From: a plasmid
DNA length: 64,000 nucleotides
Assembly (NCBI RefSeq): GCF_054482595.1
Contig: NZ_JBTHVH010000004.1
Reading direction: 5' to 3' (one strand)
The position numbers were made by a program. The first letter of the stretch is position 1; each line of letters starts with the position of its first letter. Of this stretch, positions 9,001 to 24,000 are shown piece by piece.

Positions 9001-12000
9001 CCCAAATATCATTGAACTTAAGTCTCTTAAGCCTGTGTCTTTGTTGGCCGAAAAGCTTTCTGCTTATTCAAGCTATTATCATGTGGATGTTGTGGAGCTC
9101 GTGGTCAAGAAAATTGATTTCGAAGGAGCTTATAAGCTTCTTAAAGCTTCCCCAGATGTACCACTTTTTAAAAGCTTAACTGAACTGGATAAATATCTTG
9201 TTGAGGAGTTTGAAAAATACGGATTAAATTCATTTCTTGACGTGGATAATCTGGATTACTCACTTGAAAAAGCCAGTGAACTCAAAAATGAGCAGTTAAT
9301 AAATTGGGTTTCGGACATCATTTGCAAACGTGAAAAATTAACTTTACGTAAGCGTTTTGATGTCGCAGTAAAGGCCCACTACGAAAATGTAGAAAAAATG
9401 TATGATACCATTCGTCCGTTAATGAAAAAACTGGGTTTCCCAGAAGATCTCATGACGCACACCTTTAGTGAGTTAAGCGTTTTTGAAACTAAAGGATGGG
9501 ACCATGCAATAAAATCGAAAATTGAGACTCTCGCTAAGCGTGAAACTCAATATTTAGATGATGCGGCTAAAGCAGAGAATCGACGTCTTGTAACAGAGAA
9601 GTTGGAGAACTCTTTAGCGATTGCACCAACTAAACCAACAAGAAATTGGTTACATATTGCCGGAATTGCCTGTTTGGTAGTCTGCACGTTCATGTATGTA
9701 ACTAATAAATTTATTTAATCCTGTTAAGGGGGAACCCTAACGGGGCTTCTCTTTGAACAAATCGAGGAGCGGAAAATGTCATATCTTGAATATATCAATG
9801 AAGTAAAAGTGTCCGGGATAGTTATCAGTGCTGTGGAGAAAAAAATGACTGACCAGAGTATAGGTTTGTTAATAAAGCTCAAAAATAGGATGAAGACAGA
9901 AGTTGATGGTGAAATCACTGAGAGAGAATTTTCAGTTCAAATCAAGGTGTCGCCTGAAATGTATTCAACCTGTTTCACTGGTATAAATCAGGGTGATGAG
10001 TTGATGGTCTCCGGTTATATTGTTGTCGATACTATTATGATTGAAGGGAGAGAACATCCTCTTGACTACATGAGAGTGGTAGCAACAAGTAAGTTGGCTC
10101 ACATACCTAAACCTCTAAAAGGTTTTGGACAAAGTAGCTTTAATCAGATCTGACATTAAACCCACCCTAAAGGGGAGAAATCCCTTCATGGGATTTCTCC
10201 TTTTGGAGTCCCCATGAAACAAAAATTTAGGGCTACTGCAATAAGTAGTAATCAACTTAGTTTTTTTTCTATACTCGATATAGATGAAGATGAAATAACG
10301 CAAATAGTTGATTCACCCAAAGAGCATTTAAATGATGCTTACACGTCCGGATTAAACTTTAAATCAGAAGAAAGTAACATTTCTGAGATAAATTATGATT
10401 CTGAAAGGCGTGAAAATCACCTTTATGAAAAATCCAAATTACTTAAAAATCAGATTTTGCATACAATTAATTTTGCAGCAGAAACAGATTATCTATATAC
10501 GGTTGAAGAATATAACCCAGATTTGGGTGGTCTGGTAATAGAATGGACCCCTGAGGATGTGTATGTTGTTTTTCTATCCGCTATGGAAGAGTCTTTGGAA
10601 ATCATTAAAGAACTAGTGTTGAGGAGAAAGTTATTCTTCAAAGATGACAATGGTAATATCACAGTGAATCCACTTTTAGAAGCTGAAACACGGTGGTATA
10701 TGTCAAAATCATTTGAATACACTTGTTTATGTCATGGACTTGATGCATGTGAATTTAGAGCGGAATTAAAATCATGGCTCTATTATCATTCGCATCGTTC
10801 GATTAGTGAAAACACGAAATTAGCTGAATGCAGGAATGATGATGAAATCATTTTGCATGATTGCAATGACGATATGGGCTGGGACATCTTCTTTGATCAG
10901 GATTATTTAATGTCAGAAAAAAAACTGGCTGTTAAATGGACTGACAGGGAAATTATGGATGTTTACATAAAAGCTTTTAAATCCACATTAGAGTTGTTTG
11001 ACGAGCTTGTTTCATGTGATCTGTTAACTAAACGAAACGCTTTTGGCAAGTTAGAAATCAATCCAATATTCGAAAATCATTTTGAATGGATCATGTCTGA
11101 AGCTTTTGAAATAGTGGGAAATCATCTTGGTTATAATGTGCCTCAAATTAGGAAACTGATGGCAACTATTTGCCAAATGAATCTCAAATAAAATGCCACT
11201 GGCAAACATCTGCCAGAGGGCGGTGTTTGCATTTTACCGGAGTTAAAAATGTCTAATGCCGCTATGAAGTTAAATGAAACATCTTCTGATGCTTATGAAA
11301 AATTAGAAGCTCTTCTTTCCCCGGATGTTATAAAGTTAAAACATTATGTGGATAAAGGTGAGTATCTTTTAGTTCTAGCAAAGGACCTTTTTGGTATTCC
11401 AGAAATGGATCCAAAGATGGCTGTGCCTGTTTTCAAAACTAAAACCTCGTATCGAGCTCCGCTGAACAAAGACTACATACCAAATCCCCGAATACTTGAA
11501 CAAGTGGTTAAACTGCTTATCAGTCCGGATATAGATTTAAGTGTGTGTCTTAAAGGTGAGTCCGGTTCTGGCAAGACTGAAATGGTAATGTACATTAGCC
11601 ACATGATGAATTGGCCGCTGACAATTAAGCAGATCAACAGCAATATTCGAGTTGATGAGCTTGAAGGTGAGCGCAGTCTTAATGGTGGTAATACAGGTTT
11701 TGTACACAGCGATTTGGTAACGGGATTTCGTAATGGTCACCTCATTCTTCTGGATGAAGTGGACAAAATCGATCCTGATACGGCAGCAAAACTTCACATG
11801 CCCATTGAACGTAAGCCCTGGTCACTCAGTGCTAATGGTGGTGAGGTTATAACTGCTAATGGCTACACGCGATTTATTGGTACTGCAAACACAAACATGA
11901 GTGGAGGCGCTCGCCGGTTCGTTTCTTCTCAACGTCAAGATGCAGCTTTTATAAAGCGGTTCTTGATAGTTGAAATGGAGAAGCCCGACAAAGTTGCTTT

Positions 12001-21000: not shown

Positions 21001-24000
21001 TCTATATCAGATGCGGACAAGTTTATAAATCATGTTCGTCGCTATTTAGCAGGCAGGGTAATGAAGAGGCGGATATACGCTGAATTAGATGTTTGTGAAG
21101 AAACATCAAGTATTTCACTAGTGAACTTAGGATGCTTTACGTCTCCTCTGCTCGTTACGGAATATCAAATGTTTAAGCCACACTCTTCAGGGTTATATCG
21201 AAAAGCTATAAACAACTCCTTAAAACAGTTCAAACCAGAAATGCATGTACCTTCTGAAGAACTCTTTTATAATTAATCTAACCCATCCGGGAACCTGCTT
21301 CCCGGTGGGAAGCACTTCCTTTTTAGTCATGAGGTAGTGTAAATGTTTAAAGAATCTGACCACGTGGAATTTGTTAGTGCCTTTCTTTATCAAAATTTAG
21401 GCCTTAATGTTTCCGCTGACGATATAACCGTTCAATTATCTGATACTTCGTTCGACAAAGTAACCTTTGATTACGATGTAGATATCGATAATTTAAATTG
21501 TATGTTGGATCTCTACATATCTGAGCTAATAAAGCACAACGCATCTTACTCCGATTCTATTCTTTTGAAACAAAAAATAATTTATTTTCTTGGAGTATTT
21601 AAGAATTTCGGATTTTTTACGTTTGATATTCGCGGATATAGTAATACTTTAAGCCCAGTTAAAGTTATTGATATTGTTTCAATGATTATTAATGACTGTG
21701 AAGAGTTATCTAAAGCTAATTCTTCTACTGATGCTATAAGAAATCTTTATCTCGATAAAATGAAGGTGGATGGGAAAGTGTTAGTTGCGAAATTTGCACT
21801 TAAACAGTTTTTTCATTCCGACTTTGGTGACTTTATCTCATTTGTCGAGAAAAGAATTACAGATTGTCTTAATGAAACTTTAAGGATTATCAAAGCTGTT
21901 GAACATGGCTTTGTACGTGTAGGGCAGCATAAGATTAATCGCCGTATTAATGATGACTTAAAGTTATGCATTGATTTCAATACTGATGATTATCCGGCAA
22001 ATATGCCAGATATATATATTAAGTTTAACGATACATTTGATGGGAACGGGGCGTTATATTGTGACAATGATGCCCTCATATCCCTCTATACCGATGTTGC
22101 TTCAATTATCAATGTGCCGGTGATGATGGAAGTAAGATTGATCAATAAAAGAGGGCGTGTTGTCTGTGATTCTTCGCATTCAACTTACGTATCTCTCGAA
22201 AGTAATGACCGATACAGAGTAACTGATCGCACATTACTAATAACTGAAGCTTTTGACGATTTTCGTAACGCGTCTCAATGATCCTTTTGCTTCAGTCCAA
22301 AAAAGTAACTTTGGTTGGCTGAAGACACTTGTCTATGACAATGTAAAATCTGTCGCTGGCATCTTCTTTTAGCTTAACCAAATTTTTATCTAACCCAGTG
22401 GGGAAGTCGCTTCCCTTCTGGGGCACTTCCTCTCAAATTCGAGGTAGTGTATATGACACATTCATCTGATGATAAAAACTATGTCCGAGCAGTTCTGAGT
22501 TATCTTGGCATAGATTTTGATGAGGCGGATATAGTATTAAGTGTTTGCCATTGTCAAAGTGACGAGCTTTCTTTTACCTGTAATATCAAAGCTATTGAAC
22601 TCAAGAATGTTGTTGATTTATATGTCGATAGTATCTCTGAGAATGAAATAGAAGCTTTAAACAGAGAATCTTTAAAATCGCGACTCTGTTACTTTCTTGA
22701 GGTGTTTGACGCAGTCTCTGGTCAGTACCTTGAAATTTCAGGAAAACACTTTGCAACTAGTCGTTTTGAATATGATGATGTTTGTAGTGAAGTTCTTAGC
22801 ATGTCTAATGATGTTTCTCAGTCGAAAGGTTATGACCGGGATGAATATAACAGACTGATGCAGGTTGATGGTCAGGTTATGATTGCCCGTTTTGCTTTGC
22901 AACAGTTCTGGGATACTCATTTTATTGGACTAATAACATTTGTATCTGAGTCTATAACATCGAGCCTCTATAAAGCTTATGAAACTTTTAGTGATATTAG
23001 TTTGGCTTGCTATAAACTGAGTGAATATTCTTATTCACGCTCTATCAACAGTGAATTGACCCTTAATATTTCACTTAAAGAAAATGACTTCTGTGAGGAC
23101 CTATCTGATTGCTATATGGAAGATGAGGCTTTACCTTCTGGTAGGGTAATTTCTCGACGCAACAATGACTCCATAATAAGTATTTATGAGAGCTATGCTG
23201 CGGCTTCTTATATTCCGATGATTGCATCTTTGGAAGTCGTTGATGAATACGGCGAAGTGGTTACTGACCTCTGCCATACCGTTTATGTTTCAGAGTTAAC
23301 CGGTGGGCGGATTAAAATCCACGACCGTAATGACTTAGTATCTGAAGTTTTCGATAACCTAAGAAATTTAAATCTTGCAGTTGGAGATTCAGTTTCACAA
23401 GCTGCTTGATTCTTTCCCTGATTTTGATTTTTTCTCACATACTCTTATGGCACGGTTTCCGTGCCTTTTTTTTGCCTCGCTTACAAGCGTCTACTCCTCT
23501 TCTACCTATCCCACCTTACATCACCACTTAAAATCTATCTTTCTAATTCCATTATCCTTTTCGTAGCCTCTAATGCTCTGGTATGAACATACTCTTTAAA
23601 CTCAAAAAAGTGCTATTAACGAAAAAAAATCCCTAAAGAGATTTGTATACTGTTCTCAACCAAGGAGAGCTCATGAATGAACTAAAATCCAAAAACGAGA
23701 ACAGTACCAAAAGCAACTTTCCCCCGGTTGATAATCAGTTTTGCTTTTACCATGTTGATTTCAGCATAGAACGACTACTTTCTACGGCCGAGGATCTCCA
23801 GCTTGAGTACATCTTCCAGAAACCTGGAAGTGAAGTAAGAAAGGATTTGGTTGAGCGATTCGAACGTGGAGAGCGCTTTGTTACAGCTTCACACTGTGAC
23901 AATTTCTGTGAAATCCTTGGTTGTCAAGGCCATCAGGAAAATGCATAAACCCATAAACCTACATTTCCACTTTTAAGGATGTTCACTAAAGAATGATTGG

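Follow-up and report, generated by a model that had tools for sequence, protein, structure and literature searches.

Overlapping helices at the gene boundaries of an IncHI2 plasmid gene string as candidate translational toggles

Introduction

Translational attenuators of the ermC and cat type consist of four strands which in the ground state form two hairpins, the second of them burying the Shine-Dalgarno (SD) sequence; when a ribosome resides on the first strand, the alternative middle helix forms and the SD is freed. Hairpins sequestering the ribosome-binding site (RBS) are also found at the genes e, soc and 49 of phage T4, which are translated only from transcripts starting inside the hairpin. 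Attenuators of the trp, pyr and bgl types make use of an intrinsic terminator and an antiterminator in the form of mutually exclusive, overlapping hairpins, and in RNA thermometers of the fourU and ROSE types the helix covering the SD melts between about 30 and 42°C. In atpH-atpA, translation is coupled through an unfolding of the RNA or a conformational switch. Coupling of this kind has been described for MS2 coat-lysis as well as for rpmI-rplT, where it acts through RNA unfolding across about 50 nt (PMC12548453).

The elements described here are located in a stretch of 64,000 nt (the window) from an R478-like IncHI2 plasmid. Downstream of trhI, positions 9719-22452 are taken up by a string of co-directional genes; this string spans 18.7-31.5 kb of the 246.6-kb record and comprises genes for a helicase, an AAA ATPase, a DUF3150 protein, a VWA protein and a toprim protein as well as several unknown genes. 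In a Pfam scan several string genes were without a recognisable domain, and no RNA-binding domain was detected in the ten domain-less hypothetical proteins. The string belongs to the conserved backbone of IncHI plasmids, which are carriers of mcr-1, blaNDM and typhoid multidrug resistance.

Results

Ten of the 14 gene boundaries in 9719-22452 carry a canonical element (before hypB, DUF3150, VWA, small2, hypD and P1-P5). Variants occupy two further boundaries, those upstream of hypC and of the AAA ATPase gene, and something else is found at the remaining two (12308-12438 and 16187-16299). The canonical elements differ in sequence and have one architecture in common, in which a G-free, A/U-rich flank is followed from 5′ to 3′ by the strands x, y, x′, y′ and y″. 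Strands x and x′ form H1, a hairpin of 25-34 nt clamped by CCC...GGG. Strands y′ and y″, the latter being the SD region of the next gene, form a second hairpin, H3, which begins 0-2 nt 3′ of H1 and whose 3′ arm terminates 0-5 nt upstream of the AUG. The third helix, H2 (y/y′), pairs the apex of H1, plus its GGG, with the 5′ arm of H3 and is incompatible with both hairpins. The features are as follows, with the minimum free energy (MFE) and folding z-score of the canonical elements.

9720-9778, plus strand: element before hypB; H1 9720-9744, 1 nt after the hypA stop; H3 9745-9770, pairing GCUUCUC with GAGGAGC (SD); H2 weak, 9727-9754; MFE −24.0, z −4.0; RBS opening cost 8.9 kcal/mol
10164-10216, plus strand: variant before hypC; predicted ground state an H2-type hairpin, GGGGAGAAAUCCC/GGGAUUUCUCC, at 10170-10204; SD GGAG paired only in part, likewise in other lineages
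11192-11251, plus strand: variant before the AAA ATPase gene; no CCC/GGG clamps; interleaved CUGGCA/UGCCAG and GCAAACA/UGUUUGC helices; RBS unmasked, opening cost about 1 kcal/mol
12619-12678, plus strand: element before DUF3150; H1 12619-12646; H3 12648-12675, with SD GGAG in its 3′ arm and U8 inside; H2 12627-12655; −31.3, z −4.0; opening cost 9.8 kcal/mol
13824-13883, plus strand: element before VWA; H1 13824-13849; H3 13851-13879; H2 13831-13858; −28.9, z −5.2
15902-15967, plus strand: element before small2; H1 15902-15931; H3 15934-15963, pairing UUUUGCUCC with GGAGCAAAA; H2 15911-15941; −32.5, z −4.95
17542-17564, either strand: strong bidirectional terminator of canonical form, closing the first operon behind the toprim gene; 9 pairs, 8 of them G-C
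17743-17805, plus strand: 270-nt spacer before hypD, downstream of the strong terminator, with the element at its 3′ end; H1 17743-17768; H3 17770-17799; H2 17749-17780; −27.2, z −5.4
18351-18405, plus strand: element before P1; H1 18351-18377; H3 18378-18400; H2 18356-18383; −23.2, z −3.05
19292-19354, plus strand: element before P2; H1 19292-19319; H3 19321-19351; H2 19299-19329, then U7; −36.3, z −7.3
20298-20358, plus strand: element before P3; H1 20298-20331; H3 20333-20348, pairing CCCUCU with AGAGGG; H2 20309-20335; no T-run; −34.7, z −5.7
21282-21345, plus strand: element before P4; H1 21282-21309; H3 21312-21340; H2 21290-21319; −27.7, z −3.6
22394-22455, plus strand: 171-nt spacer before P5, with the element at its 3′ end; H1 22394-22422; H3 22423-22450; H2 weak, 22403-22429; no T-run; no upstream ORF end nearby in any lineage; −32.4, z −6.2
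23449-23465, plus strand: canonical terminator, GGCACGG-UUU-CCGUGCC followed by U8, after P5 at the end of the gene string; kept in IncHI1 and pEB3_IMP1

A first-pass annotation of this DNA had pointed out GC-rich hairpins at the gene boundaries, and GC-clamped intergenic inverted repeats are indeed present at all eight of its examples. The two exclusive pairings it had read in 20301-20330 are exactly CTCCCATAGGGA/TCCCTATGGGAG and GGGATTTCTCCC/GGGAGAAATCCC, and the alternative folds that it ascribed to several hairpins turned out to be the rule. Its proposal of a repeated element family holds for the architecture and fails for the sequence, since each element has its own; of the supposed shared core, a consensus check left only the CCC/GGG clamps and the G-free, A/U-rich 5′ flank, the remainder being element-specific. 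The order of hairpin, T-run and RBS that it had described needs correction in so far as the T-run usually lies inside H3, which pairs with the SD region.

In all ten canonical elements of the window, H1+H3 is both the MFE and the centroid structure, with z-scores from −3.05 to −7.29 (each against 200 dinucleotide shuffles), and the region from 8 to 26 kb contains 28 terminator-like sites compared with 12.2 ± 4.4 in shuffles. Opening the RBS (last 17 nt) is predicted to cost 7-13 kcal/mol in 11 of the 14 string genes and 0-5 kcal/mol in nine of ten flanking backbone genes; for nine of 12 spacers the cost is higher than in shuffles (p<0.1). Among 77 elements, which were picked by a fold criterion and come from lineages that are related and not independent, the mean helix energies are −16.1 (H1), −14.6 (H2) and −10.5 kcal/mol (H3), H2 being stronger than H3 in 66 of them and H1+H3 better than H2 by 12 kcal/mol. 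This predicted ordering is what a switch requires. The duplex energy of the H1 apex is −12.7 kcal/mol with its own downstream strand compared with −7.2 kcal/mol with the strands of other elements, and the own partner ranks first in six of the ten window elements. When the 5′ end was masked as far as nucleotide 5 of x, the predicted cost of opening the RBS fell from 9.0 to 3.4 kcal/mol (72 elements), and with x masked and the H1 loop shuffled it was back up to 5.9 kcal/mol; in several spacers the predicted ensemble was not flipped outright by masking x. Since significant folding is predicted for the antisense DNA strand as well (z −0.7 to −7.2), energy alone does not give the identity of the acting strand; on the sense strand, 107 G·U pairs stand against 17 A·C mismatches.

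The architecture recurs at orthologous spacers of 10 IncHI-type lineages, whose DUF3150 proteins share 38-94% identity. Each of the three helices shows compensatory changes, and each spacer retains its own sequence at the orthologous position. Of 62 elements from these lineages, 56 have a gap of 0-2 nt between H1 and H3, and in 54 the end of H3 lies 0-5 nt upstream of the AUG. RNAalifold recovered H1+H3 de novo from sequence-based alignments of three orthologous spacers, namely VWA (11 lineages), small2 (8 lineages) and hypD. For the VWA spacer, H1+H3 is 93.8% paired over the 11 lineages compared with 34-44% for slid partners, a value as high being reached by none of 500 shuffles, and H2 is 95.6% paired compared with 39-58%. 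The clearest three-way covariation is seen in the P2 spacer, where H2 is 100% paired: GGGAUCAC / GUGAUCCC / GGAUCAC becomes GGGAUUAC / GUAAUCCC / GGAUUAC in IncHI1, and a change from C-G to U-A in H2 is accompanied by an identical one in the SD strand. No further elements were found in an additional 100 kb of the plasmid, the family being confined to this one gene string. Rfam yielded no match at the gathering score in the whole window and, in 9600-23600, only chance-level matches (E at least 0.05). A search of the literature found no paper describing these elements.

Discussion

What the computations show is the set of three helices, with its conservation and covariation, the order of the energies and the fixed position relative to the start codon. 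With slightly better than even confidence, we read the elements from these sequence and folding data as cis-acting mRNA toggles, each gating the translation of its downstream gene. In the ground state, H1+H3 would bury the RBS; if x became occupied or unwound, H1 would fall, y would capture y′ and the SD region would be freed. We infer both that x is the input strand and what may occupy it, the leading candidate being a ribosome. Where the upstream stop codon lies within about 8 nt of H1 (27 of 62 spacers), the ribosome terminating on the upstream gene could be placed on x, which would amount to translational coupling through RNA refolding. The distance from stop to H1 ranges from −2 to 32 nt with a median of about 9 (5 nt or less in 15 of the 62) and is consistently 16-20 nt for the VWA element. 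No leader ORF precedes the P5 element in five of six lineages, the sixth (L011) having only a 7-codon ORF, and no conserved one precedes the hypD element, for which a candidate differs by nonsynonymous changes only. Because the spacing is this loose, and because the hypD and P5 elements lie more than 100 nt from the upstream stop (spacers of 270 and 171 nt) without a conserved leader ORF, the terminating ribosome would not be a universal trigger. An alternative or additional occupant might be a 30S subunit with protein S1, docked on the single-stranded flank. Where H1 is not formed, partial termination could come on top at the four or five H2 stems of the IncHI2 lineage that carry U-runs.

The first-pass view that most of the hairpins are probably intrinsic terminators is not supported as the main reading, given that the T-followed stem, H2, is not the predicted ground state and that y′ covaries with the downstream SD region. 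It is also unlikely, in our estimation, that the elements are conditional intrinsic terminators in which H2 with its U-run terminates and H1 antiterminates, each junction attenuating and thereby producing an expression gradient along the operon. Such a role would fit the U-runs behind H2 before DUF3150, VWA, P2 and P4 (5-8 U) and before hypC (4 U) and the terminator-like appearance of 12626, 12643 and 21296 in a simple scan. Moreover, H1, which is transcribed first, and H2 are nearly isoenergetic on y′-truncated transcripts (mean H2−H1 +1.5 kcal/mol; 3 kcal/mol or less in 44 of 77), and partial termination is therefore plausible. However, while H2 is followed by a U-tract in about five of the ten window elements, no more than 25 of the 77 elements from 10 lineages have at least five T in the 8 nt behind them, yet H2 is kept without a T-run, and some loops consist only of UAU. 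Conditional termination would further leave the covariation of y′ with the SD and the end of H3 at the AUG unexplained, the downstream genes are conserved and intact, and canonical strong terminators are located only at operon ends (16192, 17542 and 23449).

The same toggle might also be run by a dedicated trans-acting factor, i.e., an RNA-binding protein, chaperone or helicase from the plasmid or its host recognising the common A/U flank and CCC strand or the clamped hairpin and switching all junctions together, which we regard as doubtful. The only sequence common to all elements is the G-free A/U flank, the CCC and the 3′ GGG, elements also occupy positions resembling 5′ UTRs with no upstream ORF nearby, the family is limited to one gene string, and several genes of that string are without a recognisable domain, all of which would agree with a factor of this kind. 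Against it stand the lack of an RNA-binding domain in the Pfam scan of the ten hypothetical proteins, among which no candidate factor was found, and the helix-sharing design, which alone accounts for the CCC/GGG clamps. A further proposal, to which we assign a minor probability, is that the ten toggles form one post-transcriptional regulon, in which a single factor binding the A/U flank and CCC unmasks all RBSs at once. Such a factor could be a plasmid protein encoded in the string or a host RNA chaperone abundant at low temperatures. The transfer of IncHI plasmids occurs at low temperatures. If true, the regulon would represent a master translational switch of a major family of resistance plasmids, with the string silent until it is flipped.

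Rather improbable is a passive mRNA architecture, modelled on REP elements or phage T7 RNase III sites, in which the elements would stabilise 3′/5′ ends, be sites of processing or insulate against Rho or scanning ribosomes and the masking would merely set a low, constant level of translation. Helix stability over an RBS is generally known to lower initiation, and opening costs as high as 9-13 kcal/mol would be expected to shut translation down almost completely instead of adjusting its level. Moreover, neither the conserved, element-specific complementarity of H2 nor the energy ordering H1+H3 < H2 < H3 would be explained, even though stable hairpins do lie exactly at the cistron borders, H1 and H3 with their gap of 0-2 nt could stack coaxially into a helix of about 20 bp, and structure following the stop codon correlates with reduced coupling (PMC12548453).

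We give hardly any credence to a DNA-level role on transferred single-stranded DNA (ssDNA), be it as Frpo-type promoters or as priming signals, although the complementary DNA strand folds well (z down to −7.2) and a toprim-domain protein is encoded in the string. The ssDNA promoters considered in the first-pass annotation do not agree with hairpins of 25-34 nt that are without −35/−10 hexamers and anchored to SD and AUG, and the asymmetry between G·U pairs and A·C mismatches points to the sense strand. Frpo-type promoters are long imperfect hairpins of about 100 nt or more, which reconstitute −35 and −10 boxes, and in MOBH elements oriT adjoins mobI/mobH. The mobI/mobH relaxase genes are found at 159-163 kb of the 246.6-kb record, more than 100 kb from the string, and promoter-like sites are fewer than expected (36 compared with 48.9 in shuffles). 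An Frpo-type promoter was rejected on the grounds of the short hairpins, the missing hexamer pair inside them and a location outside the leading region beside oriT. Colonisation of the spacers by a family of mobile or selfish repeats resembling REP, MITE or BIME elements is very improbable, for the look-alike GC-rich palindromes in many spacers of this low-GC backbone include no near-identical copies, have only the CCC/GGG clamps in common, keep their own sequence per spacer at orthologous positions in 10 lineages and were not found in the further 100 kb of the plasmid, only the spacers of the paralogous genes P4 and P5 being similar to each other.

Should the toggle reading be correct, RBS masking at ten successive junctions would leave the genes nearly untranslatable unless the switches flip, and the switches would give experiments a direct way of finding out when the module is expressed and for what reason. 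They would also constitute a natural case of modular, sequence-orthogonal translational toggles inside one operon, of relevance to operon design. For annotation, the locus is a warning that an intergenic GC-rich hairpin with a T-run need not be a terminator.

The syntenic Aeromonas module contains another intergenic hairpin family, consisting of tandem UUCG mini-hairpins. This hints that the need for such control may be general to the module.

Comparison with known systems

Like fourU and ROSE thermometers, the elements pair a U-rich strand with a purine-rich SD. The thermometer reading was rejected, as the predicted opening cost, 8.6-13 kcal/mol at 37°C, is still about 6-10 kcal/mol at 50°C (5.6-9.7), too stable to melt. 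With attenuators of the trp, pyr and bgl types they share exclusive overlapping hairpins, one of which carries a U-run in some copies; unlike in those systems, the U-run is not conserved and lies inside H3, and it is with the SD of the following gene that pairing is conserved. As with T4 e, soc and 49, the RBS is predicted to be buried on long read-through transcripts and translation to need the absence of the 5′ strand, whereas no promoter is predicted inside x in the window and H2 has no counterpart in T4. In common with rpmI-rplT, MS2 coat-lysis and atpH-atpA, the downstream RBS is sequestered, and the proposal is that an upstream ribosome remodels the RNA over about 50 nt; in contrast to them, H2 would serve as a relay helix, the constraint on the distance from stop to sensor is weak, and near two of the elements there is no upstream ORF. 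To the ermC and cat attenuators the elements correspond in topology (1:2 + 3:4 versus 2:3), in the location of the SD in strand 4 and in the energy ordering, but they are without a dedicated leader peptide or an antibiotic-dependent stall and are located between full-length genes or in 5′ UTRs, at ten consecutive junctions. Judged from sequence comparison and predicted folds, the elements are probably translational toggles of an ermC-like kind.

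Gene string and its hairpin-bearing junctions

Many IncHI2 plasmids are 100% identical to the stretch, plasmid records matching it at 99% or more number 1,127, and pHNGD64-NDM, the annotated reference, has the types IncHI2A, MOBH and MPF_F. Colinearity of the window with pHNGD64-NDM extends only to about 27.8 kb, past which the annotated starts of the reference misfit the window sequence. Start codons are used here as annotated or called. The hairpins lie between genes of the following string:

8846-23409, plus strand: co-directional string of genes lying downstream of trhN and trhI (Tra2 genes)
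First part of the string, in order: hypA, hypB, hypC, AAA_5 ATPase, a small ORF (small1), DUF3150, VWA protein
Rest of the string, in order: a small ORF (small2), toprim protein, hypD, P1-P5 (five genes of ~300 codons each)

For the string's ten hypothetical, domain-less proteins, Pfam searches yielded no significant domain, the sole match (Dbr1_C, 17.6 bits) lying under its 27-bit cutoff. A simple consensus scan placed strong terminator-like hairpins at 16192, 17542 and 23449, pointing to one operon from hypA to toprim and a second from hypD to P5.

Ten canonical spacer structures, called elements here, lie at 9719-22452 before hypB, DUF3150, VWA, small2, hypD and P1-P5. From 5′ to 3′, an element comprises a G-free A/U-rich flank, strand x, apex y, strand x′, strand y′, then an interior rich in A/U (49% U, 32% A), and finally y″, which is the Shine-Dalgarno (SD) region of the following gene, its end lying 0-5 nt ahead of the AUG. 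Strands x and x′ are both of the form CCC-N3-5-GGG, and y′ starts 0-2 nt after x′. Three helices can be drawn, namely H1 (x with x′), H3 (y′ with y″) and H2 (y plus the flanking GGG and CCC with y′), so that H1 and H2 exclude each other, as do H2 and H3. An H-type pseudoknot holding H1 and H2 together appears ruled out by geometry, as its connecting loops would be 0-1 nt.

The GC-clamped inverted repeats reported by the first-pass annotation were present at every example coordinate, each of which is an intergenic spacer, and the alternative pairings it quoted for 20301-20330 were exact; its "alternative stem" corresponds to H2. Folded as RNA, the ten elements had z-scores of -3.05 to -7.29 relative to 200 dinucleotide shuffles, and terminator-like sites within 8-26 kb numbered 28, versus 12.2 +/- 4.4 expected. 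When the whole window was scanned for pairs of adjacent hairpins that end at an ATG (6-nt limit), the low-GC part returned the nine strongest of the ten elements and one weak unrelated match at 26259; the P3 element, whose 6-bp H3 ends 7 nt before its ATG, fell outside this limit. The same scan over another 100 kb of this plasmid found none.

Predicted masking of the ribosome-binding site

Both the minimum free energy (MFE) and the centroid fold of the full spacer were predicted to be H1+H3 in all ten elements. The T-run that had been described as following the hairpin does exist in some elements, 3′ of H2, but in the predicted H1+H3 fold it therefore forms the interior of the hairpin masking the ribosome-binding site (RBS), with part of it pairing to the purine-rich SD. 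In 11 of the stretch's 14 genes, forcing open the last 17 nt was predicted to cost 7-13 kcal/mol, compared with 0-5 kcal/mol for nine of ten flanking backbone genes, and the RBS opening cost was exceptional at p<0.1 in 9/12 spacers relative to shuffles of the upstream part. Melting thermometers were ruled out, because RBS opening is predicted to cost 6-10 kcal/mol even at 50 °C.

For the family-wide statistics, elements were picked by a fold criterion. Across 77 such elements the mean helix energies were -16.1 (H1), -14.6 (H2) and -10.5 kcal/mol (H3), H2 equalled or exceeded H3 in stability in 66, and H1+H3 lay 12 kcal/mol below H2. In these models the energy ordering is that needed for a toggle with occupancy of x as its input. 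When the RNA was masked from the 5′ end up to and including the fifth nt of x, the RBS became cheaper to open (mean cost 3.4 instead of 9.0 kcal/mol), and shuffling the H1 loop on top of this masking brought the cost back up to 5.9 kcal/mol. Flipping of the in silico ensemble by masking x gave mixed outcomes, the free-energy cost being the clearer measure. The elements are probably toggles that mask or free the downstream gene's RBS.

Conservation across IncHI-type lineages

Syntenic regions were collected from plasmids (IncHI1 pHCM1, two IncHI1B-type plasmids and one Pantoea plasmid), from draft genome contigs of Pseudocitrobacter and Klebsiella grimontii, the only two loci yielded by a genome scan, and from six further lineages reached via DUF3150 homologues at 94, 68, 66, 57, 55 and 45% identity. 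Statistics cover ten of these lineages, L017 being left out as a frameshifted assembly. Orthologous spacers keep the same two-hairpin fold with differing sequences, and in 62 of 83 spacers of 39-94 nt the MFE structure contained two hairpins, each 6 bp or longer.

Using sequence-based alignments, RNAalifold recovered H1+H3 de novo for the VWA, small2 and hypD spacers, with compensatory changes in 8/17 pairs of the VWA spacer. In the VWA alignment H1+H3 was 93.8% paired versus 34-44% with slid partners, a level reached by 0/500 shuffles, although the lineages share ancestry and such shuffle counts are not to be taken as probabilities; H2 was 95.6% paired versus 39-58%. The three strands co-change in the P2 spacer, where y/y′/y″ shift from GGGAUCAC / GUGAUCCC / GGAUCAC to GGGAUUAC / GUAAUCCC / GGAUUAC. 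H2 complementarity is also element-specific (mean -12.7 kcal/mol for own pairs versus -7.2 for cross pairs), and by H2 duplex energy the own apex ranked first in six of the ten window elements. The MAFFT alignment of the DUF3150 spacer (A2) was structurally out of register and excluded from the pair counts, and covariation was assessed on orthologous spacers only, since in a family-wide structural alignment of paralogous elements, pairs taken from folding each sequence would be circular.

Alternative readings of the hairpins

Partial, conditional termination in the IncHI2 lineage is conceivable: in the window, U5-U8 follow H2 before DUF3150, VWA, P2 and P4, and before y″ is made H1 and H2 are predicted to be nearly isoenergetic. 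However, it is not the conserved function of the elements. The suggestion that most of the hairpins are intrinsic terminators fares poorly, as at least five T within 8 nt after y′ were found in only 25/77 elements; some H3 loops are just UAU, and H2 is kept without a T-run. A mobile repeat family is not borne out either, given that the copies sit at orthologous positions and have only the clamps in common; the P4 and P5 spacers alone are alike, and their genes are paralogs (27% identity). The proposed single-stranded DNA promoters find no backing in hairpins that lack promoter hexamers, are tied to SD and AUG, and lie more than 100 kb from the relaxase genes mobI and mobH. The complementary DNA strand folds too, as any inverted repeat must; the sense strand has 107 G.U pairs versus 17 A.C 1x1 mismatches and is the more stable one in 61/77 elements, a count biased by selection on the sense fold. 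H1 as a terminator of antisense transcription was discarded, an A-run 5′ of H1 being present in only 2-3 window elements.

Candidate triggers of the proposed switch

A ribosome at a stop codon covers roughly 9 nt beyond the stop. The distance from stop to H1 ranged from -2 to 32 nt, being at most 5 nt in 15 and at most 8 nt in 27 of 62 spacers; before VWA it was 16-20 nt in all lineages. The elements of hypD and P5 end spacers of 270 and 171 nt, respectively. No leader ORF precedes P5 in five of six lineages, the other (L011) having a 7-codon ORF only, and a hypD leader candidate (MLAQLNKCA...) was rejected because its lineage differences are all nonsynonymous and it ends at varying places. 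With such variable distances and no conserved leader ORF at hypD and P5, translational coupling by RNA refolding (reviewed in PMC12548453) fits only some junctions.

If the elements are RBS-masking toggles, the upstream ribosome would be the foremost, still tentative, candidate for the main trigger. A standby 30S subunit that docks, with S1, on the single-stranded G-free flank would be an unlikelier input, and a dedicated RNA-binding trans factor is rated lower still; a constitutive role would take the remainder. CsrA-type GGA sites were dropped, as y and y″ lack GGA in several elements, judged by eye only.

Neighboring features

Three other intervals of the gene string carry structures of their own:

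12308-12438 (131 nt): AAA-small1 interval in IncHI2, long hairpin AGATGGGAT...ATCCCATCT at about 12309-12363
16219-16283: small2-toprim spacer, long nested hairpin UUCUGCGUUGUGGGUUUCUC...GAGAAACUCACAAUGC enclosing UUCUGC/GCAGAA
17533-17740: toprim-hypD spacer, strong bidirectional terminator at 17542-17564

Small1 has 57 aa in IncHI2 versus 89 aa in IncHI1, where it begins 38 nt past the AAA gene; in IncHI2 the interval may represent a decayed 5′ portion of small1. The small2-toprim spacer has a predicted MFE of about -62 kcal/mol, and its nested hairpin, preceded by a terminator-like hairpin at 16192-16209, is kept in sequence in every lineage, Klebsiella plasmids included; it differs from the ten elements and is possibly a leader of the toprim gene. 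In the toprim-hypD spacer, the GTTATC arm of the terminator also belongs to a perfect 16-bp inverted repeat (GGTTATCTTATCAATA / TATTGATAAGATAACC). A block of high conservation, ACGGCTGAGATGCTTGCTCAGTTAAATAAATGTGCG, comes next and probably represents promoter or regulatory DNA.

A palindromic 11-mer, AAAGTWACTTT (usually AAAAGTWACTTTT), has 10 copies in the window (1338, 7861, 8540, 14986, 18731, 22302, 26495, 32545, 47014 and 51606), versus 0.06 expected, and a further 100 kb of this plasmid has 24 others; it lies in genes and spacers, and also occurs in comparison sequences L018, L019, L002-L004, L012, L014 and L016. By coordinates, its copies in trhI and the VWA gene seem to match in position among the IncHI-type lineages checked. 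It looks like a dispersed protein-binding site, for which KorB operators and matS are comparison cases; a literature search for the palindrome found no paper. It is absent from the distant Aeromonas media plasmid pAeme5 (L007), which carries a syntenic helicase / toprim / AAA / DUF3150 / VWA module. There, in spacers at about 9617-20518, a different intergenic repeat of 2-4 tandem UUCG-loop mini-hairpins (AATCCTTCGGGATATGACGCCTTCGGGCA...) precedes the SD in at least seven cases.

Comparison with known systems

An Rfam search gave no match to the elements, and literature searches on IncHI/R27/R478 intergenic hairpins and on DUF3150 returned nothing relevant and no paper on these elements. What we did not find described is a conserved three-helix design that recurs at ten successive junctions within a plasmid backbone module and is kept IncHI-wide. 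RBS sequestration with a competing helix is itself a well-known principle, and the topology of H1, H2 and H3 is that of the ermC-type translational attenuators.
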